From contig OY970192.1 in the NCBI GenBank assembly GCA_963708135.1, positions 1,216,001 through 1,280,000 of the forward strand: a DNA stretch of 64,000 bases. Direction: 5' to 3'. The position numbers and the translations under genes were made by a program. The notes beneath the pieces are model-generated. The model worked only from the letters and a program-made list of their open reading frames with translations, was not told where the DNA came from and did no database searches. Below, piece after piece: positions 737 through 37,554 of the stretch (its first letter is position 1; each line of letters starts with the position of its first letter). The stretch is from an uncultured Gemmatimonadales bacterium (GTDB lineage: Bacteria; Gemmatimonadota; Gemmatimonadetes; Longimicrobiales; RSA9).

Positions 737-746
737 GAGTCGCGTG

Positions 747-2200
<1,454 letters not shown>

Positions 2201-2204
<4 letters not shown>

Positions 2205-3169: not shown

Positions 3170-3181
3170 GAGATCCACGAG

Positions 3182-4491: not shown

Positions 4492-4505
4492 CGAGCGAGG
4501 AAGTC

Positions 4506-19808: not shown

Positions 19809-21391
19809 CGGCCGGGAGGGCCGCTTCCGTCGCCGTCCGGACGCCGCAGCAGGACGGCCACCGAGTCGCTGTAGAGCGGACGCCAGCCGGCGTAGTGCTG
19901 GAGCGTCTCGGCCAGCGGGATCTTCGCGGGCAGCAGCGCCAGGTCGATGTCGCGCGCCCGGAGCTTCTTCTCCCAGCCGTCGGAGAGCCCCACGATCTGC
20001 ATGTACTCCTTTGCGATCTTCGGGCCGTAGAAGTCCGTCGCGCCGTCGATGAAGACCCGCTCCTCCGGCCACGCGTAGATCATGTAGCCGCCCCAGACCT
20101 GGTCGTGGAACGCCCGCCCCGTGATGTGGTGGGCGCGCGCGTAGGCGACGGCCGCCACCGGGAAGCGCTCCGGGCTCACCGAGTCGCGCACCAGCTGGAG
20201 CGGCCCCGCCCGCCCGGCCGTGGCCGCCAGCGCCGCCATCCCCAGCAGGAACGCCGTGCTCCAGACGCCCGGCCGCGCCAGCCGGTCGCCGTTGCGCAGC
20301 GTGCGCGCCAGCCGCTCGATCGACGGAACGGAGCGGTGCAGCGACGGCCAGGCGAGCAGCAGCGGGACGGCGACGAGGCCGAAGAAGGGGATGTCGCGCT
20401 GGTACATCGCCGCGCCCGAGGCCAGCAGCAGGAATACCGCCAGCGCGGCGAAGGGCGGCCGCTCCCGCTTCACGGCGAAGACCGCCGCGAAGAACAGGAC
20501 GCCGATCATGAAGGCCTGCCCCCAGTACAGGTGGAAGTTGGGGGAGAGGAATTCCTCCGTGTTGTCCATGAGGAAGGAGTCCCCGAGCGTCCTGAGCGCG
20601 TGCAGCACCAGGCTCGGGCCCTCGGGCGTCAGCAGCAGCCCCAGCGCCCCGCCGCCCAGAAGCAGCCAGATCCGCCCGGTCCGGCCGGGGAAGAGCGGCT
20701 CGCCGGCAAGCAGCCCCTCGAGCAGCTCCCCGGCCGCGATCGCGCCCAGCAGCGTGAAGCCGAGGAACGCGCCCGGGTGCAGGTTCACCCACACCGCGAA
20801 GAAGACGGTCCCCGTCAGGAACGGCCGCCGCAGCCGCGAATCCAGCAGCCAGAGCATCAGCGCGCAGCCGAGAAAGCTGAAGATGTGCGGCCGCGCCAGC
20901 CAGTGGACGTTCCCCAGCACGATCGCGTAGCCGATCCCCGCCACCGCCGTCCAGTGCCCGACGCCGCGCCCGAGCATCCACTTGAGCACGAGCGCGTAGG
21001 ACGCCGCGATCACGGCCGCGCTCGCGAGCGCCACCGCCGCGAGTCCGCCCACGTGGTGCAGCGCCCCGAACACGACCTCGCTCCCCCACTCGTAGGCCGT
21101 GAACGGCGCCCCGGGACGGGTGAACGAGAACGCATCGAAGCGCACGAGCGCTCCGTGCGCCAGCATCCACTCGCCCAGCCGGACGTGGCGCAGCATGTCG
21201 CCGTCGCTGAACATCAGGCGGTTGTAGTAGACCGTCGGCACCAGCGCGGCGATGATGATGAAGACGAGGTCGGCGATCTGCGGCACGACGACGGTCCGCG
21301 GCTCCGCGACCGCGCGCGCGGCCGCGGCCGCCGTGGCCGCAGACCGCCCGGTCCGCGGCAGGGCCGTCGCCTCGTTCATCGTCGTCGCCAT
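19805..21391 (-). CDS. Polytopic membrane protein, putative GT-C glycosyltransferase (paralog of 15428..17053)
   Basis: 'DGDMLRHVRLG', 'DAFSFT', 'YEWG', 'RPHIF', 'WVNLHPG', 'WGGYM', 'VFIDGATDFYG'; GAGG RBS before ATG 21391. Confidence 0.68.
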   Translation of the reverse strand: MATTMNEATALPRTGRSAATAAAAARAVAEPRTVVVPQIADLVFIIIAALVPTVYYNRLMFSDGDMLRHVRLGEWMLAHGALVRFDAFSFTRPGAPFTAYEWGSEVVFGALHHVGGLAAVALASAAVIAASYALVLKWMLGRGVGHWTAVAGIGYAIVLGNVHWLARPHIFSFLGCALMLWLLDSRLRRPFLTGTVFFAVWVNLHPGAFLGFTLLGAIAAGELLEGLLAGEPLFPGRTGRIWLLLGGGALGLLLTPEGPSLVLHALRTLGDSFLMDNTEEFLSPNFHLYWGQAFMIGVLFFAAVFAVKRERPPFAALAVFLLLASGAAMYQRDIPFFGLVAVPLLLAWPSLHRSVPSIERLARTLRNGDRLARPGVWSTAFLLGMAALAATAGRAGPLQLVRDSVSPERFPVAAVAYARAHHITGRAFHDQVWGGYMIYAWPEERVFIDGATDFYGPKIAKEYMQIVGLSDGWEKKLRARDIDLALLPAKIPLAETLQHYAGWRPLYSDSVAVLLRRPDGDGSGPPGR

Positions 21392-21667: not shown

Positions 21668-21693
21668 CGTTTCGTTACAGCCCGCACGTAACG
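21668..21693. promoter_or_regulatory. Putative operator CGTTAC-N9-GTAACG (copy 1)
   Basis: CGTTACAGCCCGCACGTAACG at 21673-21693 in a divergent intergenic region; 18/21 identical to 33662-33682. Confidence 0.55.
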
Positions 21694-21879: not shown

Positions 21880-22809
21880 ATGGCGATCGAGGGTGGCGGC
21901 ACGGAGGCGGAGGGGCAGGGCCGGGACGACGCGGTGGCGACGCGCGGCGGCGCGTACGCCGCGGCGCCCTTTGCCGGGACGCTCGTGCACGTGGAGCTCG
22001 GTGGCGTCGCGCTCTCGAGCCCCTTCCGCGGCGAGGCCCGCCGCATGGGCATCGTCGTGCATGCGGGGGCGCCCGAGCAGGCCTGGCCCTTCCTGGGCGG
22101 CAGCGACGGGACCGTCGTGGCGACCGTCGATCCCTACGACCTGCCGCCGGCGCTCGGCTTCATGCGCGAGCTGCGGCGCCGGGGCAGCTCGGCGGGCGTG
22201 CTGGCGGTGGCCGCCACGCGCGGGCTGCGGCGCACGACGAGCTTCCCCCTGCGCCGCGCCGGTGTGGACGAGTTCGTGGCGCTGTCCGCCGACGTGGACG
22301 AGTTCGCGGCGCGCCTCCGCGAGGTGGCCCGCCTGACCCGGGCGCGCCGCGGGACCCGCGTCCGCCCGCTGCTCCCGCTCTGGGCGCAGCCGCGTGACGA
22401 GGACGGCGAGTACCGGCCGATGACGGTCGCGGAGATCGCGGAGGCCCTGCGCGAGCGGCTCGAGCTGGGCGAGGAGGACGACCCCTTCTCGCTCACGCTC
22501 CTGCGGCTGCGCTGGACGGGGGGGGGAAGCTGGCCGCTGCTCAGGCGGTGGCTCCGCCTGGAGGAGGGAGACCTCCTCGCGGACCTGCCGGACGGGACCG
22601 TGGCCATCGCGCTGGAGGGGGTCCCGCCCGGCGCCGCCGGCACGGTGGTCGAGCGGATCGCGCGCTCCCAGCCGGGGCTCGGCGTGGACGCGCTGACGAC
22701 CCTCGAGGTGCCGCCCGACCAGCGCGCGCTCCTCGCCCTGCTCGGGGGGTGGAAGGAAGCTGCGGCGCTACCCGGGATTCAGCGGTCGATCGAGGGGAGG
22801 TCCACCTGA
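21880..22809 (+). CDS. Hypothetical: pseudo-receiver plus degenerate GGDEF-like domain (paralog of 33860..34759)
   Basis: Shares DPYDLP, RTT.S..L.RAGVDE, W.QPRD..GE.R..T.AE and EGDL.A.L.D blocks with the paralog; GAGG RBS. Confidence 0.65.
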   Translation: MAIEGGGTEAEGQGRDDAVATRGGAYAAAPFAGTLVHVELGGVALSSPFRGEARRMGIVVHAGAPEQAWPFLGGSDGTVVATVDPYDLPPALGFMRELRRRGSSAGVLAVAATRGLRRTTSFPLRRAGVDEFVALSADVDEFAARLREVARLTRARRGTRVRPLLPLWAQPRDEDGEYRPMTVAEIAEALRERLELGEEDDPFSLTLLRLRWTGGGSWPLLRRWLRLEEGDLLADLPDGTVAIALEGVPPGAAGTVVERIARSQPGLGVDALTTLEVPPDQRALLALLGGWKEAAALPGIQRSIEGRST

Positions 22810-23429
22810 TGCGTCCGACCCCGGCGCAGGAAGATCCGCGTCCGCACGGTGCGGCCGTCGTACGTGGCGGCGAAGGTCCCCAGCTCGATCGGCGCCGTGG
22901 ACGGGATCTCGAACGTGCCCGACCCCTCCGCCGCGATGCCGCCCAGCTGCAGCGTGCCGCCCGGGTACTCGTACTCCACGGAGACCGGCACCGCGTTCGG
23001 GTTGCGGACCTGTACGATCGTCGCGGCCGCGGGCGTCTCGGCCGCCGAGCCGTCGCGCTCCACGGGCGCACGCTCCTCGTCCTTCTTCTTCGGGGTGTTG
23101 CGGCGCCCGGTGATCCCGGCGTCCCCCGGCGCCCTCGTCGTGCCGCTCCCGACCGTGGCCGCCGCATCCTTCACCGTGGCCTTGAGCTCCGCGTCCGCGT
23201 GCATCATGAAGAAGCCCAGCCCGAGCCCGGCCGCGATGAAGATCCACGCGAGACCGTAGTGCCGGCGCATGAAGTGCTCCAGCGCCGTGCCGCCGCAGAA
23301 CGCGACGAAGCCCGCGCTCAGCACGTCCTTCGCCGGCCAGTCCACCAGCACGCCGGCGATCACCGCGAACGTGGCGAACACCAGCCCCGAGGTTGCTCCC
23401 TGGATCATCCAGCGGTTGCGGTCCCGCAT
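22779..23429 (-). CDS. Hypothetical membrane protein with C-terminal beta-rich domain
   Basis: GGAGGAG RBS before ATG 23429; 3 TM helices, linker, beta-rich tail; host-like codons. Confidence 0.6.
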   Translation of the reverse strand: MRDRNRWMIQGATSGLVFATFAVIAGVLVDWPAKDVLSAGFVAFCGGTALEHFMRRHYGLAWIFIAAGLGLGFFMMHADAELKATVKDAAATVGSGTTRAPGDAGITGRRNTPKKKDEERAPVERDGSAAETPAAATIVQVRNPNAVPVSVEYEYPGGTLQLGGIAAEGSGTFEIPSTAPIELGTFAATYDGRTVRTRIFLRRGRTHQVDLPSIDR

Positions 23430-23799
23430 TCCGGGAACTCCTCCGATTGCGCTTCGCGACGGGTGGGCGTACGGGAAACGACCGGCGTGGCCCGGTCCTG
23501 GGTGCACCTGCAGTGTGTGGATCGCTCGAACCAGAAGTTTACTCGAAACCGCCGGCGGCGCAAGGGCCGCGGCCCCGGGAAAGCCGCCCCCGCCGGTGCG
23601 ATCCGCTTGCACGGACGACGCGCGACCACTATCTTTGTCGGTCGTTCTCTCGTTCGGCTGACTTTCCCCGGCCGGCAACCGACTCCCCGGGTCTCCGGCG
23701 TTTCTTCCTGGATGTGTGGCTTTTGCACGTCGCGCCCCGCCGCCGATGGCCTGGTGAGCGGTGGCGCGCCTTACGAATGGACCCGGGAGGGATGTGAAC

Positions 23800-25128
23800 A
23801 TGCATACGCGTGAGGTGTCCCGCAGGCGAGCGGGCGGCAGGCTCGCGGCGCTCTTCCGGCGCCGCGCGCGGCGGTTCGGCAAGGACCGGCGTGGCGCCGT
23901 CCTGGTCGTGGTCGCGCTCTCCATGGTGGCCTTCGTCTCGATGGTCGCCCTCGTCGTCGATCTCGGCATGCTGCTGCTCGCGCACACCGAGGCGCAGCGC
24001 GCCGCCGATTCCGCGGCGCTCGCCGGCGCGAGCTCCTTCCTGACCTTCGACCCGGCGGTCACGCCGACCGAGGCCGAGGACACCGCCCGCGCGCGCGCCC
24101 TGGATTACGCCACGCGCCACACCATGCTGCACAACGCGATCGTGAACGGCGAGGTCACCATCCAGGTGGTGCTCGACTCCGAGAAGGTGCGCGTCACCGT
24201 CCACCGCCCGGCCATCTCCCTCATCTTCGCGCGCGTCTTCGGCATCAACACCGCGGGCGTCGCCGCGACCGCGGCCGCGGTCGCGGTCGATGCCGGCGCG
24301 GCTCCGTGCGTGAAGCCGTTCGCCATCCCCGACATGTGGGCCGCGAACCCCGCGGAGGACGTCAACAACAACCGCGTCTGGGATCTGTCCGGGTGCACCG
24401 ACAACAAGTGCAGCAACGAGGAGAAGTGGGGCTTCGACCCCGACAACGGCGACTTCTACACGCCCCGCACCGACGACAGCGGAAACGCCAACACGGACCC
24501 CACCGGCTACGGGACCGGCTACCGCAACGGCTACGCCGACGTCAGCGGGAGCGAATACTCCGGCGACTACGGCCGCCGCTTCGCCATGAAGGTGAATGGC
24601 GGCTCGGGCAAGTACATGCCGTCGTTCTGGTTCCCCTGGAAGATGCCGGGCAACAACGGCGCCAAGGACTACACCACCGCCATCGAGGGCTGCAGCTCCG
24701 TGCAGATCGGCGATACGGTCAGCTCCGACACCTCGTGGATCACTGCCGAGAAGGGCAATATCGGCCACCCCACCTATACGGCCATCGAGAACCTGATCCA
24801 CTCGAACTCGACCTATTCGAACGAGACCTGGGACGCTTCCGCCCTGGGCGGCGCGGGTGGGCCCTCCTCTGGAATCAATCCCGGCGACCCGCGCATCATC
24901 ACGGTGGCGCTCTTCGACCCCACGACGTTCGTCTCCTCGAATACCAAGAGCATGGTCTTCGTGGACTTCGCCACGTTCTTCCTCGAGGACCCCGACGTGG
25001 TCAACCCGGGCATGGCCGGCGGCCAGACCTTCAAGGCGCCCATCACCGCCCGCTACCTGGGCCGCGTCTCCGGTTCCTACGGTCCCAACAAGGGCACCAT
25101 CGTGAAGCGGCTGCGGCTGATCGAGTAG
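23800..25128 (+). CDS. TadG-like pseudopilin (Tad domain) with large C-terminal extracellular domain
   Basis: 'RRGAVLVVVAL...ALVVDLG...AQRAADSAALAGA', 'CVKPFAIPD.W'; GGGAGG RBS. Confidence 0.88.
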   Translation: MHTREVSRRRAGGRLAALFRRRARRFGKDRRGAVLVVVALSMVAFVSMVALVVDLGMLLLAHTEAQRAADSAALAGASSFLTFDPAVTPTEAEDTARARALDYATRHTMLHNAIVNGEVTIQVVLDSEKVRVTVHRPAISLIFARVFGINTAGVAATAAAVAVDAGAAPCVKPFAIPDMWAANPAEDVNNNRVWDLSGCTDNKCSNEEKWGFDPDNGDFYTPRTDDSGNANTDPTGYGTGYRNGYADVSGSEYSGDYGRRFAMKVNGGSGKYMPSFWFPWKMPGNNGAKDYTTAIEGCSSVQIGDTVSSDTSWITAEKGNIGHPTYTAIENLIHSNSTYSNETWDASALGGAGGPSSGINPGDPRIITVALFDPTTFVSSNTKSMVFVDFATFFLEDPDVVNPGMAGGQTFKAPITARYLGRVSGSYGPNKGTIVKRLRLIE

Positions 25129-25156
25129 GCTGTGGCTGCAGCAGCACGAGCTCGAG

Positions 25157-25189
25157 GAAGCCGCCCTCCTGTTCCGGGAGGGCGGCTTC
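25157..25189 (+). terminator. Stem-loop after the TadG-like gene
   Basis: GAAGCCGCCCTCC / GGAGGGCGGCTTC perfect 13 bp stem, followed by a weak U-tract (CTCTTGT). Confidence 0.65.
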
Positions 25190-25259
25190 GCTCTTGTGTG
25201 CCGTGGGTTCCGCCCGCGAGCCATCGGCTCGTTCTCGCTGGAGCTGAGGTCATCCAGTC

Positions 25260-25520
25260 GCCGGATGGTCGCCGTCGGCCCCGTCACGAATCTTGGCGGC
25301 CTGGCGCTCGCGCTGGCGCTCCTCCTGCTGATGTCAGGTCGTCGTCCGCCGGCTGTCCGCACCCTTGCATGGGCGGCGCTCGGTGGCTGCGTTGCGGCCG
25401 CCGTCCAGGCAAAGGCGTTCGGCTACCACTGGCTGCCGGCGGCCGGATGCCTGCTCGCGGCGGCCGGTCTGGGACTGGCCCTCGCCGGCGACCGGATGCC
25501 GCGGAGCCGGGCGATCTCCG
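25260..25520 (+). pseudogene. Fragment of a polytopic membrane (GT-C-like) gene
   Basis: Hydrophobic run with 'AVQAKAFGYHWLP'; no credible start and degrades downstream. Confidence 0.35.
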
Positions 25521-25853
25521 GTCGAGCTGCGACACGAATTGCGGGTAGCGCTCGCGCCGGCGCGGCGGCCCGGCGGCATCCGCCCGACCTGGTGCTGGTC
25601 GATCTCGCGCGCGGCACCGCGCCGGACGGACCTCCGCTCCGGCTTTTCCCGGGCGGGGCAGATGCGCGTGGGTTCGAGGCCGGCGCCAAGGGCACGGACT
25701 GTTTCCGGGCGCATCGGCCACGGCCAGGAGCCACCGGATTCGGATTCCGGGGCTACGCCCCTGGATTCGGATTCGTTGAGACAACGGGGCCGCGCGCGCG
25801 CGCCCGACCCCGTGGCTCTGTCAAGTGTGATTGCCGCGCGCGCCCGGCGCGGC

Positions 25854-27659
25854 CTAGAAGGCCAGGCCGCCGGTCACGCCGATGCTCCAGTAGCGGTAGC
25901 CGTGGGAGTTCACGCCCCAGCGCTGCAGGGCGTTGGCGGCGTAGTAGCCGGTGAGCCCGATCTGGGCGCCGGGGGCGATGGTGTAGGCGATGGTGGCCTG
26001 GCCGCGGTAGGCGCCCTGGACGGGGCCGTCGCGCTCGATCTGCTGGAGGCCGGGGGCGACTTCCAGGACGGTGCGCCAGGCGGTGCCGTTGCGCGTCCAG
26101 TTGAGGGTGGCCTCGGCGAGGCCGTAGTAGTTGGGATCGAAGTAGCCCTCGTTCAGGTGCTTCTCGAAGCCAAGACCCGTAAGTGCCATGCCCGCACGGA
26201 TCTGACTGGCGATCGAGCGCGTGATGGTTCCACGCACCAGCAGCCGCTGGTTCTGCTCGGCGCCGTCGAAGATGGCGCCCGCGGTGCGCAGTGTGGCGGC
26301 CCAGGGCGCGGCGGGCGCGGTCTCGATGGAGAGCGCCAGCTCCTGGTACGTGATGCTGTTGTCGGCCAGCAGCGCCGTGTAGTCGAAGAGCGAGCGCTGA
26401 TAGCTCAGCCCGGCCGTGAGCGGGCGGCCGGCGGGCGTACGGATCGCGCCGGTGTAGCGGGCCACCCAATGGTTGTCCTGCGCCACGGTCGCCGCGCCGC
26501 CGCCGGCGGAGAGGGTCCAGCCGCCGGCCACGAAGGCGGTCAGCGTGAGTAGCCCGCCATAGGTGCTGTGGTCGAGGCCGGGCGCGTCAAGCAGCAGCTT
26601 CTTGCGGTAGCCGTCGGCCGCGATCTCCAGGTGGGCGCCGGGATTCCAGCGGAGCACGAGGCGGGAGGTGTTGATGCGGTTGCCGTCGTTGTCGTGCTCG
26701 TAGTTGTTGGAGGCGTAGGCGCGCGGCCCGGCGGCGGCCTCGGCCCAGGCGATCTGGTTCTGCACCTCGGGGTCGTCGGGGGCCAGCCGTCGGGCGCGAT
26801 CGAGCACGGAGAGCGCCTCGGAGGCGCGCCCCTCCCAGCGCAGCGTCTGGGCGAGCCCGACCAGGCCCTCCACGTCCTGCGGCGCCACGGCCAGCACGCG
26901 GTTCCACGCGGCCTCCGCCTCGCGCAGCCGGCCGCTCCAGGCGTAGGTGCGCGCGACGCCGCGCAGCGCCTCGAGGTCGTTGGGCTTCTGGCGCAGGATC
27001 GACTGGTAGACGGCACGGGCGGTGTCCTGTGCCCCGCCGTAGGCGTAGCTGAGGGCAAGGCCGAGGCGGGCCTCCGCCTGGGCGGGATCGACGGCGAGCA
27101 GGTCCTGGAACGCCTGCGCGGCCTCCGTCCGCTTGCCGGACCAGAGCAGCGCGTGCGCCTTGCCGAGCAGCAGCTCCTCGCGGTGCGCCGTGTCGGTGGC
27201 CAGCAGCCGGTCGTAGAGGGGCAGGGCGGTGCGGAAGTCGCCCGACCAGGTGGCGAACTGCGCCCGCGCGAACTCGGCATCCACGTTGTTCGGGTCCCGC
27301 GCCAGGATCGAGTCCACGGCGGCGGAGGCGCTGGCGAAGTCCTTCTTCCACGCGAACACGCGCGCGCGCTCCAGCGCCGCCTTCTCGTCCCGCGGCGTGA
27401 GGCGCAGCAGCCGGTCGAAGAGCGCGGTGCTCTCGTCGTAGCGCCTGGACCAGCCGACCATGAGCGCCAGCCGGTGCAGCGCGACGGTGTCGGTGGAGTC
27501 CGCCGCGAGCATGCGCCGGTAGAGCGGCTCGGCGGTGGCGTAGTCGCCGCGGTTCCAGGCCGCGGCCGCGGGATCCTGGGCATGCGCGGGACGCGCCGAC
27601 CCCAGCGATACGGCCAGGAGCACGGCGGCCGCGGGCATCCAGTGCAGTCGAGTCTTCAT
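25854..27659 (-). CDS. TPR-repeat outer-membrane beta-barrel protein (PgaA/NfrA/YaiO-like export porin)
   Basis: Signal peptide, about 8 TPRs ('A....W.G....A...Y..L...P...A'), amphipathic beta C-terminus, 'GYFDP', terminal Phe. Confidence 0.78.
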   Translation of the reverse strand: MKTRLHWMPAAAVLLAVSLGSARPAHAQDPAAAAWNRGDYATAEPLYRRMLAADSTDTVALHRLALMVGWSRRYDESTALFDRLLRLTPRDEKAALERARVFAWKKDFASASAAVDSILARDPNNVDAEFARAQFATWSGDFRTALPLYDRLLATDTAHREELLLGKAHALLWSGKRTEAAQAFQDLLAVDPAQAEARLGLALSYAYGGAQDTARAVYQSILRQKPNDLEALRGVARTYAWSGRLREAEAAWNRVLAVAPQDVEGLVGLAQTLRWEGRASEALSVLDRARRLAPDDPEVQNQIAWAEAAAGPRAYASNNYEHDNDGNRINTSRLVLRWNPGAHLEIAADGYRKKLLLDAPGLDHSTYGGLLTLTAFVAGGWTLSAGGGAATVAQDNHWVARYTGAIRTPAGRPLTAGLSYQRSLFDYTALLADNSITYQELALSIETAPAAPWAATLRTAGAIFDGAEQNQRLLVRGTITRSIASQIRAGMALTGLGFEKHLNEGYFDPNYYGLAEATLNWTRNGTAWRTVLEVAPGLQQIERDGPVQGAYRGQATIAYTIAPGAQIGLTGYYAANALQRWGVNSHGYRYWSIGVTGGLAF

Positions 27660-27669
27660 ACGGAGCTCC

Positions 27670-30351
27670 TCACCGGAGCGTTAGCGTGGTGCGAGGCAGC
27701 GTATGGAACGCCTCGCGCAGTGAGTCGTAGGCGGGCCGCAGCCGGGCGGTCCACTCCGGCTGCTGCCACGTGGGCCAGGTGAAGAAGGCGCCGTCCGTGG
27801 CCCGCGCGGGCCAGCTGGCCCAGTCGCCATCGGCAGAGCGGGTCGCGGCCAGGATCCGGATCCCCGGCAGGATCTCGGTGGCCAGCGCGTCCTGCTCGCC
27901 GAACTCGGGGCTGGAGGTTCCGCCCGGGATCGGCCGCGCGTGGGCCTGCTCGAGCGCGCGCCTGGCGCTGGCGTCCGTGATGTCGATCAGCATCCACGGG
28001 ATGCGCACCTCGAGGGCGCCCGGCACGGCGCTCCACAGCCCGTCGGGCGGGTTGCCCGCCGGCAGCGCGCCGCGGTCGTAGCCGAGCGAGGGGTACTCCC
28101 TGCCGTCCGGCGTGAAGCGGCGCCCGTCCAGCACGACGTCGAGCGAGTCGTAGCGGCCCGACGAGTCGGCCACCGGCACCGTGGCGCGGCTCATCGTGTT
28201 CAGCACGCGCCCCTGGAACGCGCCGGGCAGCGGCGGCCCGTGCAGCGGAAAGGGCAGCGTCGGGTGTTCCGGCACGGTGTCCGGGATCGGCTGGATGGGG
28301 AAGGGAACCGCAGCCGGCTGCCCCACCACCTCGGCATGGCCGCCACCCGCCGTCACGGCGAACTCGACGCCTGAGGGCAGCGCCGGGCCGGCCGCGTAGC
28401 CGGGCCAGCGGAACGCGCCTCTCTTCGGGTTCCACAGGTCGAGGCCGACGAAAGTCCGGGCGGGCGGGGCCGTGCTGTCGTACTGTACGAGCACCCACAG
28501 GTACGAGGCGTCCGCCGCGGCGCGCACCTCGATGCCGTCGTGCGCCGGCGCCAGCGGCGGAAGCTTGCGCCAGGCCCGGAGACGCGCGGTCAGGTCGTCG
28601 CCTGGAACGGCTTGCGCGGCCTCCATGGCCACGAGCCCGAAGTACTGCTCGGGGTTCATGGCGTTCTTCCACATGCGCTGGCGCTCCAGCGGGATCGTCG
28701 TCGAGACCGCCACCCAGCTGCGCTTGAACCACTCGTCCATCCACTCGAAGGCGACGCCGCCCGCCGCCCCCGCGGCGGAGATCTCGCGCGTCATCTGCGC
28801 CAGAATGGCCGCGGCCTGCGCCTCCGTCAGCCCGCCGTGGTCCCGGCCCTCCGGCTGCACGTGGGCGGCGCCGATGCTGGGCGGGATGCCGTACTCGGCC
28901 ACGACCAGCGGCATGGGCGCGTAGTGGTCGCGCAGCGCGCGCACGTAGCGCTGGTAGCCGGAGCGGTGCTTCGGATCCGGCAGGTTGGCCTCGTGCACGA
29001 GGAAGTCGGGCCAGTACGGGTAGATGTGGTACGAGGCGAAGATGCCGCCCCGGAAGCCGCCCGTGCCCTCGAGCTTCTTCTCGTCCAGCGACACGGCATC
29101 CACGTCGAAGGGCGGCCCCACGCGCGTGATCTTCTCGCCCAGCGCGCGCCGGAACGCCAGCTCCTGCGTCTGCGTGGCCTCGGTGGGATGCGTCAGCGGG
29201 TCGAGCGGCGGCCAGTTGGTGAAGGCGACGGGGCGCTGCTCGTCGTAGCGGTCCATCTCGTGCGACACGAGCACGTCCAGCGCCCGCGCCATGACCGCCT
29301 CCATGGGCGTCACGCTGTCGGCCCGGATGTAGCGGCCCGGCCAGCCGCGCAGCTCGGGGTGCATGCGGTTGAACGACTCGACCGAGTACGGCTCCCACTC
29401 GCGGCCGATGAGATAGGCCAGGGTCCAGCGCGAGACGTCGGCGCGGTAGAAGCCGGAGGCGCGGCCGCGCATCGGCCGCACGTCGGCGCGCCCGTGCACG
29501 ATGTCCACGGCGGTCCGCAGATCCACGTCGAAGCCGTCCTTCCACTGGCTGCCCAGGTAGTCGTCGTCCGCCGGCAGCTCCGCCCACACGCCCTGGATCA
29601 GCCACAGCGGATGGTCCGGGTGCGCCATGTCGTAGGCGCGCAGCGCGCCGTAGAAGGCGGGCGGGTGCAGCGTGTAGACGCGGAGCGCGTTCGCCCCGAC
29701 CGCGCCGATCTTCTCCAGCCACCCCGCGTAGGTGGCGCTGTCCGGGAACTGGCTGGCGAACTTGCCGGGCAGCGCCGCGCCCAGGTCCACGCCCTTCACA
29801 TAGAAGGGGCGCCACGCGCCATCCGGCCCGCGCACCTCGAACGCCGGGCCGTCGGTGCGCGCCCACAGGACGAGCGAGTCGGGACGCTCGAAGCGCGGCA
29901 TGGGCGGGGGCGTGCCCATCCCCTCCGGCATCTCGGCCAGGTACTCCGCCGGCTCGGGACGGCGCGGATCCACCGCGTGCGCCTGGGTGAAGAGCGCGTA
30001 CGACTCGGCGAACGCGCCTACCTGAAACGCAGCAATGCCGCCGCCAACCAGCGCATCCGCGTCCGTGGGCGAGTGCTTGCGTGCCTGCGCGAAGTCGCGA
30101 CGCGCCGCGGGGATGTCTCCCCGGCGCAGCGCCACGAAGCCGAGGCCGTTCAGCGCGCCCACGTGCGCCCGGCACATGCGGTGCGCGTCGCCGAACGCCT
30201 CGCCGGCCGCCTTCACGTCGCCCCTGGCGAACGCGGCCCAGCCCGTCTGCACGATCGGGTTCGCCCCGCGCGGGCAGCGGTCGCGGACACGGATGCCGAG
30301 CGCGGCCACGCTGATGAAGGTGACCAGGATGACCAGCAGCGTCTTCTTCAT
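27670..30351 (-). CDS. Exported TPR plus glycoside hydrolase (GH-A clan TIM-barrel-like) protein
   Basis: N-terminal anchor, TPRs, 'VKGV.LG', 'GANALRVYT', 'GREWEP', 'YHIYPY', 'VAEYG', 'FEW.DEWFK', 'EQYFGL'. Confidence 0.75.
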   Translation of the reverse strand: MKKTLLVILVTFISVAALGIRVRDRCPRGANPIVQTGWAAFARGDVKAAGEAFGDAHRMCRAHVGALNGLGFVALRRGDIPAARRDFAQARKHSPTDADALVGGGIAAFQVGAFAESYALFTQAHAVDPRRPEPAEYLAEMPEGMGTPPPMPRFERPDSLVLWARTDGPAFEVRGPDGAWRPFYVKGVDLGAALPGKFASQFPDSATYAGWLEKIGAVGANALRVYTLHPPAFYGALRAYDMAHPDHPLWLIQGVWAELPADDDYLGSQWKDGFDVDLRTAVDIVHGRADVRPMRGRASGFYRADVSRWTLAYLIGREWEPYSVESFNRMHPELRGWPGRYIRADSVTPMEAVMARALDVLVSHEMDRYDEQRPVAFTNWPPLDPLTHPTEATQTQELAFRRALGEKITRVGPPFDVDAVSLDEKKLEGTGGFRGGIFASYHIYPYWPDFLVHEANLPDPKHRSGYQRYVRALRDHYAPMPLVVAEYGIPPSIGAAHVQPEGRDHGGLTEAQAAAILAQMTREISAAGAAGGVAFEWMDEWFKRSWVAVSTTIPLERQRMWKNAMNPEQYFGLVAMEAAQAVPGDDLTARLRAWRKLPPLAPAHDGIEVRAAADASYLWVLVQYDSTAPPARTFVGLDLWNPKRGAFRWPGYAAGPALPSGVEFAVTAGGGHAEVVGQPAAVPFPIQPIPDTVPEHPTLPFPLHGPPLPGAFQGRVLNTMSRATVPVADSSGRYDSLDVVLDGRRFTPDGREYPSLGYDRGALPAGNPPDGLWSAVPGALEVRIPWMLIDITDASARRALEQAHARPIPGGTSSPEFGEQDALATEILPGIRILAATRSADGDWASWPARATDGAFFTWPTWQQPEWTARLRPAYDSLREAFHTLPRTTLTLR

Positions 30352-30373
30352 CCGGTGTGCCCCCGGGAGCCGG

Positions 30374-30841
30374 TCACCGCTGCGGCCCCGCGCCGGGCGC
30401 GGCCGGCGCCCCGGCCGCCATGCGGGCGAGGTGCTCGCGGATGTCGGGGCGCTCCGGCGCCAGCTCGCGCGCCCGCGTCAGGCGCTCGCGCGCCCGCTCG
30501 AGCTCGCCCAGCTGGTAGCTGGCCACGCCGTCGCCCACGAGGGCGTCCACGGCGTTGGAGTCGTGCGCGAGGATCCACTCGAATTGGGCGCGCGCGCTGT
30601 CGGGGCGGCCCAGCCGGAGCTCGGCGAAGCCGAGGCCGGAATGCGCGTCCAGGTGCGACGGGCAGCTCGCCGCCGCGGCGCGGAAGCGCGCCTGCGCGCT
30701 GTCGATCGCGCCCGTCCGGTACGCGGCCCAGCCCTGCCGGGCCGCCTCGTTCGCGACGCGCGGGCAGGGATCGCGGTAATGCCAGGCGGCAACCGAGAGC
30801 GCGAGAAGCACGGCGCCGAGCACGAGCCAGGTCTTGGCCAT
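30374..30841 (-). CDS. Small exported TPR protein
   Basis: Signal/TM followed by about 3 TPRs; GGAG RBS; similar to the N-terminus of 27670..30351. Confidence 0.8.
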   Translation of the reverse strand: MAKTWLVLGAVLLALSVAAWHYRDPCPRVANEAARQGWAAYRTGAIDSAQARFRAAAASCPSHLDAHSGLGFAELRLGRPDSARAQFEWILAHDSNAVDALVGDGVASYQLGELERARERLTRARELAPERPDIREHLARMAAGAPAAPGAGPQR

Positions 30842-30864
30842 CTTGGGTCTCCTCGAAACCGCGT

Positions 30865-32352
30865 CTAGCGGGCGCGGGCGCGCAGGCCTATGCCGCCGCC
30901 CGCCGTGGCCGCGGCCAGGACGGTGTCCTCACTCTTCGGGGCGGCTCCCAGCGAGCCGTGGCGGTCCATCGCTCCCCAGCCCTTGCGGCCGCGGATCGCC
31001 GAGATCACGCCCTTGAAGCGCCAGAAGGCCAGCAGCTGCCGGTAGCCGAAGTTCTCGGCCACGGCCAGCCAGAGCAGCATGACGAAGTCGCGCATCCGCG
31101 TGTAGCGCCGGAAGACGAGCTCCTCGAGGCCCACGGCCGCCACCGACAGCGCGCTGCCGAACACGAGCGCGACGGCGATGAAGGCGATGATGAAGGGCAC
31201 CGAAAAGAGTCCCAGCGCGAGCGTCACGGCGAACGCGATGTAGCCGAGGAACTCGAGCGCCGGGCCGAGCCCTTCCAGGAACCAGAAGTAGGGGAAGGCG
31301 AGCATGCCGATGCGGCCGAACTTCGGGTTCAGCAGCATCTCGCCGTGATGGCCGAGCGCCTGGACCAAGCCGCGCTGCCAGCGGTCGCGCTGCCGCGCGA
31401 GCCCGCGCCACGTCTCCGGCGCCTCCGTCCAGGCGACGGGGTCCGGCACGAAGCTGATCCGGTACTCCCGCTTGGCCTCCCGAAAGTGGCGGTGCAGGCG
31501 GACGATCAGCTCCATGTCCTCGGCCACCGTGGCGGAGGAGTACCCGCCGGCGTCCACCACGGCCGAGCGGCGGAACAGGCCCAGCGCGCCGGAGATGATC
31601 AGCAGCACGTCCATCGCCGACCAGCCCATGCGGCCGGCCAGGAACGCGCGCAGGTACTCGACCACCTGGAAGCGCACCAGCATCCGCTTCGGCAGCCGCA
31701 CCCGCGAGATGGCGCCGTTCTCGACCACGCAGCCGTTCGCGATGCGAACGATCCCGCCCGCGGCGATGGTCGTGCCGTCCTCCATGAACGGCCGCACCAG
31801 CCGCATGAGCGCGCCCGGCTCCAGCACGCTGTCCGCGTCCATCGCGCAGAAGAGGGGTGTGTGGCAGAAGTTGAGGCCCGCGTTGAGCGCGTCCGCCTTG
31901 CCGCCGTTCTGCTTGTCGATCACCCACAGGTTGGGCAGCGTCTGGCTGCGGTAGATCTCGCGCACCCCCGCCGCCGGCAGGTCGGCCGTGTGCGCCCGGA
32001 TCGTCGGCGCCAGCCGGAACGCGGCCCGCAGCCGGCCCAGCGTCCCGTCCGTCGAGCCATCGTTGATCACGATGATCTCGTACTCCGGGTAGCGCATGTC
32101 GAGCACCGAGCGGACCGACTCGACGCAGTTCCCTTCCTCGTTGTAGGCCGGGATCAGGATGGTCACCGGCGGCGCGCCCGCGGTCCGCACCAGCTCGTCA
32201 ACATCCACCGAGTTCAGGCGGCGCGCATAGCGGCGCAGCGCCCGGAACGCGAAGATGCTCGTGCCCAGGTAGAACGTGTTGAGCACGACGAAGTAGCCCA
32301 GCAGGAGCAGGTTGAAGCCGATCAGGACCGCAATTCCGAATTGTACCCACAT
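30865..32352 (-). CDS. Processive GT2 glycosyltransferase (IcaA/PgaC-like synthase)
   Basis: PAYNEE, NDGSTD, GGKADALN, MDADS, AEDM, QRDRW; N- and C-terminal TM helices. Confidence 0.92.
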   Translation of the reverse strand: MWVQFGIAVLIGFNLLLLGYFVVLNTFYLGTSIFAFRALRRYARRLNSVDVDELVRTAGAPPVTILIPAYNEEGNCVESVRSVLDMRYPEYEIIVINDGSTDGTLGRLRAAFRLAPTIRAHTADLPAAGVREIYRSQTLPNLWVIDKQNGGKADALNAGLNFCHTPLFCAMDADSVLEPGALMRLVRPFMEDGTTIAAGGIVRIANGCVVENGAISRVRLPKRMLVRFQVVEYLRAFLAGRMGWSAMDVLLIISGALGLFRRSAVVDAGGYSSATVAEDMELIVRLHRHFREAKREYRISFVPDPVAWTEAPETWRGLARQRDRWQRGLVQALGHHGEMLLNPKFGRIGMLAFPYFWFLEGLGPALEFLGYIAFAVTLALGLFSVPFIIAFIAVALVFGSALSVAAVGLEELVFRRYTRMRDFVMLLWLAVAENFGYRQLLAFWRFKGVISAIRGRKGWGAMDRHGSLGAAPKSEDTVLAAATAGGGIGLRARAR

Positions 32353-32355
32353 AGG

Positions 32356-33420
32356 CTACTCCGCGAGGACCTGCAGGGCCACGTCCGAGGAGACCGTGCC
32401 CGCGTGAATGGCATTGCGCAGGTACTGCATCTCGCCGTGGGCGCGAAGCCCGCGGGCGGCGTGCAGCGCGACCCAGGGTGAGGGGTCGCGGAGCGCGAGC
32501 TTGAGCCGGGCCACGTCTTCCTCGCCCCCCAGCTGGCCGAGCGTGGCGATCGCCTGGGCGCGTACGGCGAAATCCGCCGAGCCGGCCAGCACCCGCACCG
32601 GCTCCAGGTAAGTCGCCCCCGCGCCGGAGCGGACCAGCCGGAGCGCCGCCGACAGCAGGTCGGCGTCCGTTTCCCTGCCCAGGATCTCCGCTGCGTCCGC
32701 CAGCGCCTCCCGGTCCCCCATCCGTGCCAGCGCATCGGCGCACACCGCCCGCGTCTGCGCCGCCAGCAGCGTGTCGCGCAGGGCCGCCCGGATCAATGAC
32801 GCCGCCCCCGGGCCCATCGAGACCAGCATCGAGATCAGGAACTTCGGGCTCCACTCCTCGAACCGGTCCAGCCGCGCCATCACCGCCGCCGCGTGCCCCG
32901 GCCGCCCGGACGCCGCCAGGTTCCGCGCCGCGATCATGGACACCAGCGGAGAGGGATCGTCCAGCGCCTCCACGATCGCCGCGCCGCTGCGCTCCATGTC
33001 GAGCAGCGCCACGGTCTGGACCGCGCGGGCCCGCCGCTCCGGGTCGCCGCCTTTCATGCGCCGCGTGATCGGCGCCAGGTAGGGCGCGGCCAGGCGCGGC
33101 AGCACCTGGCGCATCGCCAGGTCCGCGTTCAGCGCCGCCTTGTAGAGGAAGTCCACGAAGTACAGCTCCTCGCCCCTGCCGACCCGCCCGAGCAGCGTCT
33201 CCTCGGGCGTGAGCCCCGCGGCCACCTCGGGCAGGAGCACCTCCCACTTCTCCTCGAGCGTCTCCCATCGCCGCGCCGTGCGGATGTTGCGCAGCCGGAG
33301 CAGGATCGCCCACAGCGCGAACACGATCGTGAGCACGATCAGCCCGACCAGCACCACGACCAGCGCGAGCAGCTTCCAGTTGCCCGCCACCGTCTGCCAA
33401 ACCGTCGTCAGTCCATTCAC
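32356..33420 (-). CDS. Membrane-anchored HEAT-repeat protein
   Basis: GTG 33420 with GAGGAG RBS; one TM, then 'ALDDPSPLVSM.AA', 'DFAVRAQA', 'LRDPSPWVA..AA' repeats. Confidence 0.8.
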   Translation of the reverse strand: MNGLTTVWQTVAGNWKLLALVVVLVGLIVLTIVFALWAILLRLRNIRTARRWETLEEKWEVLLPEVAAGLTPEETLLGRVGRGEELYFVDFLYKAALNADLAMRQVLPRLAAPYLAPITRRMKGGDPERRARAVQTVALLDMERSGAAIVEALDDPSPLVSMIAARNLAASGRPGHAAAVMARLDRFEEWSPKFLISMLVSMGPGAASLIRAALRDTLLAAQTRAVCADALARMGDREALADAAEILGRETDADLLSAALRLVRSGAGATYLEPVRVLAGSADFAVRAQAIATLGQLGGEEDVARLKLALRDPSPWVALHAARGLRAHGEMQYLRNAIHAGTVSSDVALQVLAE

Positions 33421-33649
33421 GTGCGCGTGCTCCTCACGGGTGTTCGGCGCGGAACCGCGTTGCCTGGTCTCGCCGCAGGGCCGCACCGACGCGGTGCATT
33501 CTGGCTGTTCCGGGGGAAGACCTGTTCTCGCGTTCGGCGCGGTCAAGGGCAAGCGGCAGGCCAAAACCCGCACTCCGCCCCCCGGCGGGCGCAAACCCGG
33601 CGTTCGCGGCCGTTTCCGGGCGGGGTGGAGCCGGCCCGGTGAGGCCTGC

Positions 33650-33686
33650 GCTGTAACGACGCGTTACAGCCGGCGTGTAACGAAAC
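33650..33686. promoter_or_regulatory. Putative operator cluster (copy 2): GCTGTAACG-acg-CGTTACAGC plus TGTAACGAAAC
   Basis: Three TGTAACG half-sites in alternating orientation in a divergent intergenic region. Confidence 0.55.
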
Positions 33687-33859
33687 CCGCGCCCGACGCC
33701 GGGCGGCGGAGGGCGTCGGAGCCCGTAAGTGCTAGATTGTATCGGACATTGCACTTATTTCCCCTCGTGGCACGCTTCCTTCACCATGGCCCCCCGCTCG
33801 TCCCGCCGCTGCCGTTGCGGCGACCGACTGCGTGATGAGGCGAAAGGTTGGCGTGACGT

Positions 33860-34759
33860 ATGGGGACCAGGCGCACGGAGCAGGGATTGGTCTCGGAGGC
33901 CGGGCTCGCCGCCGCGCAGGCCCGCTGGACGCTCCAGCCGGTTCGCGGCTGCGGCCCCGCCGTCGTGATCCGCTCCGCGCACGCGCCGCTGCCCGCCCCC
34001 GTGTACCGCTGGCTGCGCACCCGCGGCGCCGTGGCGTACCGCTCCGCGGGCGCCGTGGGGGCCGAGGCGCTGGATGCCCTTGGGACGGGCGGCTTCGTGC
34101 TGTTCCACGCCGATCCCTACGACCTGCCCGACGTGCTCGATGACGTGGCGGCGCTGCGCCGGGCCGGACACGTGGGCGCGATCGTGGCGCTCGTGGAAGT
34201 CGGCGGCGTGCGGACCACCACCTCGATCGAGCTGATCCGCGCCGGCGTGGACGAGGTGCTGCTCACGGACATGGCGGTGGCCGAGATCGCCTCGCGCATC
34301 GAGCTCGCCAGCCAGTACGCGGTCCTTCGGCCCGGGCGGCCGAGCACCCGGCCCGCCCTGTTCTGGACCCAGCCGCGGGACCCGCGTGGCGAGCTCCGGC
34401 TGCTCACGGCGGCCGAGATGCGCGAGATCCTGCTCGCCCGGCTGCGCCGGCCCGCCTACTCCGATTTCGTCTTCGTGGTGCTGCGGCTCGGCGATGCGTA
34501 CCTGGACGGGAGCTGGAGAGCGCTGCGCGGCCGCATGCGGATCGGCGAGGGCGACCTGGTGGCGCGCCTCGAGGACCGCGTGCTCGGGCTGCTCTTCGAG
34601 TCCGTGCCCGAGGCCAGCGGCGGAGAGGTGCTGGCGCGCGTGCTCGGGCTGCACCCGGCGGGAGAGGCGGCGGACCGGGTGACGATCTTCCGCTCGCCGG
34701 AGGATCGGCTGGTCCTGCTGGAGTGGATCCTGAGCGCGGGCCCCGCCGAGCCCGGCTGA
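33860..34759 (+). CDS. Hypothetical: pseudo-receiver plus degenerate GGDEF-like domain (paralog of 21880..22809)
   Basis: Same conserved blocks as the paralog; 'RMRIGEGDLVARLEDRVLGLLF' aligns by eye to the GGDEF core but lacks GGDEF. Confidence 0.65.
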   Translation: MGTRRTEQGLVSEAGLAAAQARWTLQPVRGCGPAVVIRSAHAPLPAPVYRWLRTRGAVAYRSAGAVGAEALDALGTGGFVLFHADPYDLPDVLDDVAALRRAGHVGAIVALVEVGGVRTTTSIELIRAGVDEVLLTDMAVAEIASRIELASQYAVLRPGRPSTRPALFWTQPRDPRGELRLLTAAEMREILLARLRRPAYSDFVFVVLRLGDAYLDGSWRALRGRMRIGEGDLVARLEDRVLGLLFESVPEASGGEVLARVLGLHPAGEAADRVTIFRSPEDRLVLLEWILSAGPAEPG

Positions 34760-34773
34760 GAGCGATCCCGATC

Positions 34774-35757
34774 ATGCCGCCGCTCAGCCCCGACGTGGGG
34801 CCCGACCCGATCGACCGGGATGACGCGCAGTCCGCGCGCGAGGGACTGTACTGGATCCTGTTCCAGGCGGCGCCGTCGGGGGTGTTCCGGGCGTCGGAGT
34901 CCGGACGGATCCTCGAGGCGAACGCGGAGCTGAGGGCGCTGCTCGGCTCCGACCCGCGCTCCGACCTCGAGCTGACGCTGGCCGGGCTGTGCGTGAAGGC
35001 GGACGACTGGGAGGCCATGCGGACCCAGCTCGAGCAGACCGGCGCGGTGCGCGCGTACCGCTTCGAGGCCTGTCGCCTGGACGGCTCGCCGTTCTGGGCC
35101 GAGCTCTCGCTGACCGCCGTTTCGCTCGGCGGCGAGCCCGTGCTGATCGGCAGCCTGACCGACGTCTCCGGCTGGAAGGCCCGCGAGGAGGAGCTGCTCC
35201 GGACCGCGCTGCGCGACCCGCTCACGGGCCTCGCCAACCGGCTGCTCTTCAACGACCGGGTCGAGCACGGGCTGCGCCGCGTGCGCCGGGAGCCGAGTGC
35301 GGTGTTCGGGGTGCTGTTCCTCGACATCGACGACTTCAAGCGCGTGAACGATAGCTTCGGCCACCGCGTGGGCGACGAGCTGCTCATCGCCTTCGGGCGC
35401 CGGATCCAGGCATCCGTCCGGCCGCAGGACACCGTCTCCCGCCTCGGCGGCGACGAGTTCGCGATCCTGCTGGCCGACATCTCGACCGCCGACGACGCCA
35501 GCGTCGTGGCCGAGCGCATCCGGGCCGCCCTCGCCCAGCCGTTCGTGGTCGGAGGCAACCGCATGCACCTGAGCGCCAGTATCGGGATCACCCTGTGCAA
35601 CGCCGGCGGCGCCGGCGCGGCCGACCTGCTGGAGGTCGCCGACCGCGCCATGTACGCGGTGAAGAGCGCCGGCGGCAATGCATACAGGGTGCTGTTCGCG
35701 GAGGACCGTCCGCCGGGCGGAGCCGGAGGAGGGGGAGTATCCGCACACGAAGAATGA
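34774..35757 (+). CDS. PAS-GGDEF diguanylate cyclase
   Basis: PAS/PAC ('DGSPFWAELS'), DPLTGLANR, RPQD I-site, RLGGDEF. Confidence 0.92.
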   Translation: MPPLSPDVGPDPIDRDDAQSAREGLYWILFQAAPSGVFRASESGRILEANAELRALLGSDPRSDLELTLAGLCVKADDWEAMRTQLEQTGAVRAYRFEACRLDGSPFWAELSLTAVSLGGEPVLIGSLTDVSGWKAREEELLRTALRDPLTGLANRLLFNDRVEHGLRRVRREPSAVFGVLFLDIDDFKRVNDSFGHRVGDELLIAFGRRIQASVRPQDTVSRLGGDEFAILLADISTADDASVVAERIRAALAQPFVVGGNRMHLSASIGITLCNAGGAGAADLLEVADRAMYAVKSAGGNAYRVLFAEDRPPGGAGGGGVSAHEE

Positions 35758-35764
35758 GGCCGCC

Positions 35765-37423: not shown

Positions 37424-37554
37424 GCCGTCGGCGCCGCACCACCCCGTCTCCGCCGCCCCCGCCTCTTGCGCGCGGGGGCGGGCCGCGCCACACTGTTCCC
37501 TCATACAAACAATCCGTCCGGCACGATGGCGTGCCCACAGCCGGAGCATACGCG

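Follow-up and report, generated by a model that had tools for sequence, protein, structure and literature searches.

BcsE has so far been regarded as an accessory of enterobacterial cellulose secretion. PelD, another receptor for cyclic di-GMP (c-di-GMP), is membrane-anchored, carries a GAF domain and a degenerate GGDEF domain, and binds its ligand via an intact RxxD motif. The c-di-GMP control of poly-N-acetylglucosamine (PNAG) synthesis in Escherichia coli acts on PgaC-PgaD. Here, we report on two paralogous genes, A and B, from a 64,000-nucleotide stretch of the genome of an uncultured Gemmatimonadales bacterium (GCA_963708135.1, contig OY970192.1, positions 1,216,001 to 1,280,000), referred to as the window throughout. 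Their products belong to the ATPase-less branch of an unnamed, previously undescribed BcsE-like family, which combines a KaiC/RecA-like ATPase with a degenerate receiver domain (REC*) and a degenerate GGDEF domain (GGDEF*). In the literature searched, BcsE-like regulators are described neither for Gemmatimonadota nor for systems other than Bcs.

According to the available parts of the published descriptions, BcsE has the domain order NTPase*, REC*, GGDEF* (PMC7439463, PMC7840130), the N-domain being a degenerate, catalytically incompetent NTPase (PMC7840130, PMC11470070). An intercalated c-di-GMP dimer is bound between I-site I of the GGDEF* domain (R415TGD) and I-site II of the REC* domain (R306ATD) (PMC7439463, PMC7840130). 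The gene occupies the leader position of a synthase-accessory operon (PMC7439463) and, in the saturated Bcs macrocomplex resolved by cryo-EM, one BcsE copy touches the glycosyltransferase (GT) domain of BcsA via REC* (PMC11470070).

A BcsE-like family and its operon

Paralogs A and B are real genes, their coding status being backed by a GC content at third codon positions (GC3) of 0.93-0.95 (0.95 for A) in a window with a GC content of ~73%. They are the only two copies in their own genome (5.45 Mb, one contig). BLASTP aligns them with 83/215 identities (39%, E 5e-32), and the alignment includes the blocks DPYDLP, RTTS..L.RAGVDE, QPRD..GE.R, and EGDL, so that the paralogy claimed in a first-pass annotation of the window, which quoted these blocks, is borne out. 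At the DNA level, only ~67% identity is left, over 215 nt, and the duplication is therefore old. Hidden Markov models (HMMs) of the family match paralog A with E 1.2e-82 (two-domain model) and E 3.9e-37 (GGDEF* model). Neither protein matches a family in Pfam (best GlnR_1st, E 0.13) or NCBIfam; in particular, the Pfam scan returned neither a PF00072-type receiver match nor a PF00990 (GGDEF) match.

The fold of the two halves was analysed on structure models of paralog B. An AlphaFold2 model of the whole protein reached a predicted local distance difference test (pLDDT) score of 71.5; its top Foldseek matches are to residues 217-523 of BcsE (6tj0, 9fnn, 9fo7; E 3e-9 to 5e-9), followed by PleD, DgcR, and WspR. 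Residues 29-159 superpose on receiver domains, with Z 12-13.9 to many of them and 1nxo as the best match (Z 13.9, root-mean-square deviation [rmsd] 2.2 Å, 111 residues), as the first-pass annotation had proposed for this half. Alignment by hhalign to a canonical REC domain of the window puts T136 at the receiver Lys position and V112 at the Thr/Ser position. By the strands of the model and the family alignment, beta-1 is followed by S39-A40 and not by an acidic pair; D85 after beta-3 is kept. The model thus portrays the N-half as a pseudo-receiver, predicted to be incompetent for phosphorylation.

The C-terminal 135 residues of B, modelled alone with 17 sequences, reached a pLDDT of 85.5 and a predicted TM-score (pTM) of 0.81. 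Foldseek lists the GGDEF* domain of BcsE first (6tj0_B, E 9.4e-4) and then almost solely GGDEF domains. BcsE is also first among the 48,161 chains compared by VIA, which is independent of Foldseek (9fnn_E with Z 12.2, rmsd 3.2 Å, 119 residues; 6ybb_E with Z 11.9), and ranks 1-37 of that comparison are all GGDEF-domain proteins. Among the language-model neighbours, the PF10995 BcsE cluster is found at rank 2 (0.93). The domain comprises ~130 aa compared to the 161 positions of the Pfam GGDEF profile. The GG[DE]EF motif is absent from A and B, its position reading EDRVL/PDGTV (LEDRV in the other register). Modelling therefore bears out the earlier proposal of a catalytically dead GGDEF-like domain in the C-half; a helix joins it to REC*. 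Two candidates were discarded in the course of this analysis. In a hand alignment, EGDL had been taken for the GGDEF motif; in the hhalign comparisons with BcsE and with canonical GGDEF domains, its GD falls on the I-site or beside it, and the GGDEF-motif position comes 5-6 residues further on. De novo TIM barrels, which topped a profile search of PDB sequences (E 1e-5), are taken to be composition or repeat artefacts, and the real leads from that search (GlnR-type and other receivers, PA0861) all have E>0.03.

The family became apparent from a profile built from A, B, and three close relatives. Among 1.84 billion representatives, this profile matched 44 proteins at E<=1e-3, most of them ~500 aa long and aligned through their C-terminal 260 residues; a word-index search had found only three relatives and had missed the paralog. 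A Pfam scan of 32 of the 44 includes 23 proteins of at least 469 aa, and 20 of these 23 carry an N-terminal KaiC/RecA-type ATPase domain (PF06745). The scanned members also show weak receiver and GGDEF_2 matches, and two of them graze PF10995, CBP_BcsE (E 0.002 and 0.004, under the 25-bit cutoff). Walker A (GxxGxGK[ST]) is intact in all 24 long forms examined. The KaiC/RecA-like domain of the long forms (L022-L037, L144-L158) also has an hhhhD[ST] Walker-B-like strand. The first-pass annotation had described A and B as members of an unnamed effector family. They are indeed unnamed, having no Pfam or NCBIfam match, but they are not free-standing, belonging to a BcsE-like lineage whose usual form includes the ATPase.

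Among the loci fetched by pattern from species genomes, full two-domain matches are restricted to records of metagenome-assembled genomes (MAGs) from Gemmatimonadales, Longimicrobiales, and Gemmatimonadota, plus one MAG labelled Gammaproteobacteria. A further 63 loci from Myxococcota and other taxa (L039-L101) matched over the REC part only and were dropped from the family counts; the two that were scanned encode ordinary REC-HisKA-HATPase hybrid kinases. The family is sparse, being found in 10/61 relatives, 17/73 genomes of the family to which the window belongs, and 21/401 genomes sampled across the phylum, with the window's own genome included in each count. Among the 73 and the 401 genomes, short forms occur solely in the window's genome, in which a genome-wide search found no long form. 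Outside it, full matches are open frames of at least 447 aa, except for one of 312 aa that runs into the end of its contig, and there are two partial matches of 225 and 235 aa. Two scans of metagenome contigs for short-form relatives found none. The 225-aa frame (L159, 10001-10675) comprises only the linker and GGDEF* and lies ahead of a TPR-GT2 gene pair (terms below); it represents a broken gene or else a second truncation that arose independently. In each of six long-form matches (G169, G251, G379, G315, G195, G166), a single in-frame stop (TGA, TAA, or TAG) is flagged.

In a maximum-likelihood tree of 55 of 64 sequences (nine had a coverage under 220 columns and were left out), A, B, and six other short proteins (P0003-P0008) form one clade (99/94), in which A groups with P0007 and B with P0003-P0006. 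Other "short" rows of the tree have near-identical long forms as neighbours and are read as fragments. The fact that the eight short forms fall into one clade, with A and B each accompanied by at least one ortholog, indicates a single loss of the ATPase domain, and the duplication must predate the split of the source organisms. That the short forms are functionless, decaying remnants of a long-form gene would fit the missing ATPase domain and the lack of a long form in the genome. We give this explanation next to no credence: the frames are intact with high GC3, the structure models are confident, the clade of eight holds same-length proteins from other samples and metagenomes with 46-76% identity to B, and there are no KaiC-domain remnants upstream of A or B (best E 0.39). 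The other PF06745 genes of the genome are of the double-domain KaiC-like type and far from both paralogs.

The long forms have a conserved gene order, which was analysed with HMMs of neighbouring genes, built from five long-form loci and scanned over all loci that had been fetched. A gene coding for a tetratricopeptide repeat (TPR) protein is directly downstream of the long form in 24/31 loci with downstream flank. In the first set (11/15), this TPR gene codes for 720-870 aa and abuts or overlaps the long form, the exceptions being L032-L035; a family 2 glycosyltransferase (GT2) gene then follows in all seven loci that reach far enough, and a carbohydrate esterase family 4 (CE4) deacetylase gene in six. 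The second set was drawn from other families in the phylum and comprises 16 loci, with the TPR gene in 13, the GT2 gene in 12, and the deacetylase gene in 10; the long form stands alone in three (L145, L147, L150). Pfam and NCBIfam assign the operon genes to TPR, Glyco_tranf_2_3, and Polysacc_deac_1, and the GT2 is nearest to PgaC/IcaA (E 1.2e-63, under the equivalog cutoff). The long form heads a four-gene operon for a synthase-dependent exopolysaccharide, which codes for the regulator, the TPR protein, a PgaC-like GT2, and a CE4 deacetylase. The pairing with a GT2 operon that the first-pass annotation had read from the window is hence supported across genomes by the long-form loci, and it is the only one of its pairings with such support.

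Tad pilus genes are found upstream of the long form in 7/11 loci of closer kin with at least 8 kb of flank, as a block of TadG-like, TadB, TadC, DUF192, and a conserved 480-aa AAA+-like gene. The enrichment of homologs near glycosyltransferase or Tad loci, which had been anticipated, is therefore strong for the glycosyltransferase operon and holds for Tad in closer kin. It might be argued that the family regulates the Tad pilus, for example via the TadZ or TadA ATPases, and that the GT2 adjacency reflects co-regulated surface structures. In addition to the upstream block, such a role would be in line with two of these loci (L033, L034) having no exopolysaccharide genes downstream, with the TadE/G-like gene that follows A after a small convergent gene (Table 1), and with the occurrence of the TadZ N-domain among the structural matches of REC* (4lda, Z 12.3). 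However, the 16 distant loci have no Tad genes within ~9 kb (TadBC model), while 13 of them keep the TPR-GT2 operon; long-form and TPR genes abut or overlap, and the co-fold of B with the GT2 (see below) passes its controls. As TPR, GT2, and deacetylase are kept while Tad is absent, it is the polysaccharide operon that represents the stable association, and we consider a role confined to the pilus very unlikely.

The first-pass annotation had drawn a different picture: a self-contained new effector family, duplicated with its promoter, each copy serving an unrelated glycan machine, namely a GT-C pair for A and an operon with a HEAT-repeat protein and a GT2 for B. Both copies are in fact head-to-head with membrane or glycan genes, and no named family matches them. 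The membrane protein gene divergent from A (19805-21391) has unnamed clusters as nearest language-model neighbours, with PMT_2/Dpy19/STT3 at 0.92 (150/256 features shared), and a GT87-family gene is next door (17065-18297). This is a weak lead, and the GT-C label is unverified: neither protein of the membrane pair has a Pfam or NCBIfam match, and HMMs of the two (memA, memB) matched in the window only and in none of the relatives' loci scanned, so that no relative links them to the family. The promoter duplication does not hold, since the 5' intergenic regions of the paralogs (21392-21879 and 33421-33859) have only chance-level words in common (best blastn E 0.025); neither has an Rfam match at E<=1. 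Given also the long forms and the BcsE-like architecture of the family, this picture as a whole is to be regarded as highly improbable.

The predicted GT2 contact and c-di-GMP sites

The canonical operon of the long forms is missing from the window's genome. The GT2 operon divergent from B is the counterpart in the window to which the cross-genome evidence points. Its GT2 is the best match in the genome to the GT2 of the relatives' operon (34% identity; 31-33% in comparison with individual operon proteins), with Q320, R321, R323, and W324 invariant. It matches NCBIfam PgaC_IcaA with E 1.2e-40, under the family cutoff, and has no PilZ match in Pfam. The 601-aa TPR protein of the operon weakly matches the TPR protein encoded directly downstream of the long form in relatives (custom HMM TPRbig, E 4.9e-21).

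Residues 30-299 of B (24-row alignment) were co-folded with the GT2 (8-row alignment) in three runs, modelling with the GT2 having already been suggested by the first-pass annotation. The interface score ipSAE has a median of 0.63 (runs 0.74, 0.63, and 0.22), compared to 0.00 for the best of three controls. The mark applied is reached by 116/157 solved complexes and by 2/215 mismatched pairs (rough counts only, as the alignments were our own). The runs share at least 78% of their contacts, and the pLDDT of the partner is at least 71. On B, the predicted interface spans residues 117-161, that is the alpha4-beta5-alpha5 face and the linker helix, and on the GT2 it is formed by residues 53-61, 89, 162-166, 188-194, and 261-262 of the cytosolic GT domain. 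The model supports binding of B to the neighbouring GT2.

Candidate ligand sites were located by hhalign of the 24-sequence family alignment with E. coli BcsE, which places R118 on R306 and G231-D232 on G417-D418. R118, R227, G231, and D232 are invariant in the 24 diverse members. At the REC* site, the window proteins read RTTT/RRTT, with Thr at the Asp position; over 64 family sequences, the site is LRxxT[RS] in Gemmatimonadota-type members, whereas the more distant long forms have LRxxDR, an intact RxxD. The GGDEF* site of the window proteins reads GEGD/EEGD. Here, G-D and R227, five residues upstream, are invariant over the 64 sequences; the position of the canonical Arg varies, being G/E in the window proteins and K/R in many long forms. 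Given that A and B lack a canonical RxxD and that the registers are of low probability, binding of c-di-GMP by the window proteins is plausible but cannot be canonical, and would have to use a non-canonical site.

A PAS-GGDEF cyclase gene lies close behind paralog B in the same orientation. Its likely start (ATG 34774) is 15 nt past the stop of B, and the two genes are probably co-transcribed. The catalytic motifs of the cyclase are intact, as had been annotated (Table 1). Two more GGDEF cyclases, a REC-HD-GYP protein, and a c-di-GMP-I riboswitch are also encoded in the window.

We assign a probability of roughly 0.55 to the interpretation that A and B are short BcsE-like forms and that B exerts post-translational control on the adjacent GT2, probably in response to c-di-GMP. 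Paralog B would dock with the alpha4-beta5-alpha5 face of its REC* domain on the cytosolic GT domain of the GT2, in parallel to the contact between BcsE REC* and the BcsA GT domain described in part of PMC11470070. In this way, polymer synthesis would be adjusted to the c-di-GMP that the neighbouring cyclase produces locally, and the ligand would be contacted by R118 (corresponding to BcsE R306 of I-site II) and by R227, G231, and D232 (at or next to I-site I) instead of a canonical RxxD. Paralog A would probably serve another envelope machine in a similar way.

Several observations weigh against this interpretation. One of the three runs reached an ipSAE of only 0.22, invariant residues are not enriched at the interface (3/35 on B and 4/~20 on the GT2, near expectation), and the result may lean on the likeness to solved complexes of BcsE REC* with the BcsA GT domain. 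The alignment with BcsE, although collinear over 210 columns, has an hhalign probability of 2.9% (E 0.016), and that with canonical GGDEF domains, at 2.4%, has a register one residue off the BcsE alignment. In neither register is there an intact RxxD in A or B at either site. PF10995 does not match A or B even at E<=10, and both lack the N-terminal domain, which is responsible in BcsE for oligomerisation and for targeting to the membrane. With respect to the operon, an HMM of the HEAT-repeat protein found no counterpart in the scanned loci of relatives, and no deacetylase was detected in the window operon with the one query used, so the polymer may differ.

In the main rival explanation, A and B are c-di-GMP-blind adaptors: scaffolds or assembly factors on the synthase or on another envelope complex that have lost nucleotide sensing, any c-di-GMP control being exerted elsewhere. 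Both RxxD positions are degenerate in A and B, the conserved patch on REC*, including R118, falls in the predicted protein interface and not in an open pocket, and BcsQ binding by BcsE is independent of c-di-GMP, as stated in part of PMC7439463. On the other hand, R118, R227, G231, and D232 are invariant among diverse members, all but R227 being aligned with the two ligand sites of BcsE or with positions next to them, B is tightly linked to an intact cyclase, and the locus is dense in genes for c-di-GMP turnover and includes a riboswitch. We therefore consider blind adaptors unlikely, though less so than any of the rivals discussed above.

Control of the GT2 by c-di-GMP-responsive short forms can be extended, tentatively, to the family as a whole. 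In this bolder version, which we regard as possible but doubtful, the KaiC-REC*-GGDEF* proteins would be an ATPase-competent sister of BcsE and the cytosolic regulatory subunit of a PNAG-like secretion system with GT2, CE4 deacetylase, and TPR protein. The window lineage would have shed the ATPase and duplicated the remainder, leaving a stand-alone REC*-GGDEF* plug that docks on the GT domain and binds c-di-GMP via R118, R227, and D232, with a site possibly completed by the synthase.

If this bolder version is correct, BcsE-type "vestibule" regulation would be general to synthase-dependent polysaccharide machines and not a speciality of enterobacterial cellulose. A distant BcsE-like family associated with a PgaC-like synthase would mark the REC*-GGDEF* sensor as an older, portable regulator of synthase-dependent exopolysaccharides. 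The natural series of ATPase-competent long forms and ATPase-less short forms, with RxxD intact or replaced, could be used to dissect the contribution of each BcsE domain and I-site. Control of the biofilm matrix would also become open to concrete tests in a soil phylum that has been little studied and for which genetic tools are scarce.

Gene neighbourhood in the window

The features of the window that are relevant to the paralogs are listed in Table 1.

Table 1. Paralogs A and B and associated features of the window
Feature	Position	Strand	Description and evidence
Tad core: TadA ATPase, TadB, TadC, DUF192, 461-aa AAA+-like gene	744..5891	+	Pfam T2SSE, T2SSF x2, DUF192; custom HMMs
REC-HD-GYP protein	5911..6969	+	HD...GYP present
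Membrane GGEEF cyclase	9640..10614	+	
Second polytopic membrane protein of pair	18294..19808	-	Hydropathy, GC3
Polytopic membrane protein	19805..21391	-	Divergent from A; paralog of 15401-17053(+)
Paralog A (P0001)	21880..22809	+	309 aa from ATG 21880; open reading frame open from 21769; REC* + GGDEF*, without ATPase domain
Small convergent gene	22779..~23400	-	Between A and TadE/G-like gene
TadE/G-like pilus-assembly protein	23761..25128	+	Pfam Tad E 2.8e-10; downstream of A
601-aa TPR protein	25854..27659	-	Pfam TPR_19 E 2.4e-25
893-aa protein	27670..30351	-	Signal-like N-terminal segment, 1-2 TPRs, then ~750 aa without Pfam match
Small TPR protein	30374..30841	-	Pfam TPR_16 E 8e-13
GT2, processive-type (QRxRW)	30865..32352	-	Pfam Glyco_tranf_2_3 E 3.8e-24; nearest PgaC/IcaA
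HEAT-repeat protein, one N-terminal transmembrane segment	32356..~33486	-	Pfam HEAT_2 E 5e-14, hydropathy; first operon gene, divergent from B
Paralog B (P0002)	33860..34759	+	299 aa; REC* ~residues 30-159, GGDEF* ~165-296
PAS-GGDEF diguanylate cyclase	34723..35757	+	Pfam GGDEF E 1.1e-46 and PAS; RPQD...GGDEF intact
Polytopic membrane protein	35678..37423	+	Same direction as B; no family match
Soluble protein, no family match	37432..38316	+	GC3 frame plot, gene call; start uncertain, 37432-37786
c-di-GMP-I riboswitch RF01051	39723..39800	-	53.6 bits, gathering score 35, E 1e-7
Membrane GGEEF cyclase	40132..40944	-	Near-duplicate of 9640-10614

The Tad core of the window is the same block that precedes the long form in relatives, and homologs of the TadE/G-like gene are the first genes of the Tad locus that lies upstream of the long form there. 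The last gene of the core (4506-5891, + strand) represents a conserved gene of ~460-480 aa with only faint AAA+/sigma-54-activator matches, the homologs of which in closer kin (L022-L025, L029, L033, L034) always have TadC/DUF192 on one side and the long form on the other; it may code for a Tad- or exopolysaccharide-linked ATPase. The core is followed (5911-10614, + strand) by the REC-HD-GYP protein, a GAF-PAS hybrid histidine kinase, and the first of the two membrane GGEEF cyclases.

In the GT2 operon, the 893-aa protein occupies the place that is expected for a deacetylase or hydrolase in a synthase-dependent operon. The deacetylase of the relatives was not found in the window's own genome with a single protein query, which is not proof of absence. 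The riboswitch is located just upstream of 38826-39671 (- strand), which codes for a 281-aa protein with a faint fn3 match and otherwise no family.

The GT87-family gene that adjoins the membrane pair (17065-18297, + strand) has a weak GC3 signal. Together with 15401-17053 (+ strand), it is part of a region (13500-18300) with a GC content of 0.66-0.67 compared to ~0.73, which may have been acquired horizontally. HEAT repeats are encoded elsewhere in the window by a second cluster (57290-60974, + strand), consisting of an ECF sigma factor, a gene without family, and two HEAT-repeat proteins, and by an M1 peptidase with HEAT repeats (48062-50521, - strand).

Comparison with described systems

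PleD, WspR, and DgcR have the REC-GGDEF order in common with A and B, and Foldseek ranks them high across the two domains. Unlike A and B, which lack GG[DE]EF and the receiver Lys, these cyclases are catalytically active and have the GG[DE]EF motif, a phospho-acceptor pocket, and an I-site of the RxxD type. PelD from P. aeruginosa (4euv, 4dmz) provides the precedent of a degenerate GGDEF domain as c-di-GMP receptor for a synthase-dependent polysaccharide. It matches the C-domain of B with Z 8.2 (VIA) and Foldseek E 0.013, the Z being lower than that of BcsE. Unlike PelD, A and B carry REC*, have no GAF domain in the Pfam scan, and lack RxxD.

The operon of the relatives resembles the PgaCD/Ica system for PNAG in having a TPR protein, a GT2 nearest to PgaC/IcaA, and a CE4 deacetylase. 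It differs in that no PgaD is recognised and that the regulator is cytosolic and BcsE-like; the window operon differs further by its HEAT-repeat protein with a transmembrane segment and by the lack of a detected deacetylase.

BcsE (PF10995, GIL domain; 6tj0, 6ybb, 9fnn) remains the closest described protein, despite clear differences. The host is a member of the Gemmatimonadota and not an enterobacterium, the partner is a PgaC-like GT2 without PilZ match, adjoined by a CE4 deacetylase in relatives, instead of BcsA/BcsB, and neither BcsF, BcsG, BcsQ, nor BcsR was seen. The long forms keep an intact Walker A, whereas the NTPase of BcsE is described as degenerate in the parts of the cited papers that were available, and RxxD is broken at both sites in A and B. 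Against this, the REC*-GGDEF* tandem of BcsE is the best structural match both to the whole of B and to its C-domain, and the long forms share the tripartite order of a RecA/KaiC-like domain, REC*, and GGDEF*. Both BcsE and the long forms are encoded in the leader position of an operon. A low-probability hhalign alignment brings R118 and G231-D232 into register with the two I-sites of BcsE, and the contact of REC* with the GT domain of the synthase, which has been solved for BcsE, is predicted here for paralog B and its GT2.

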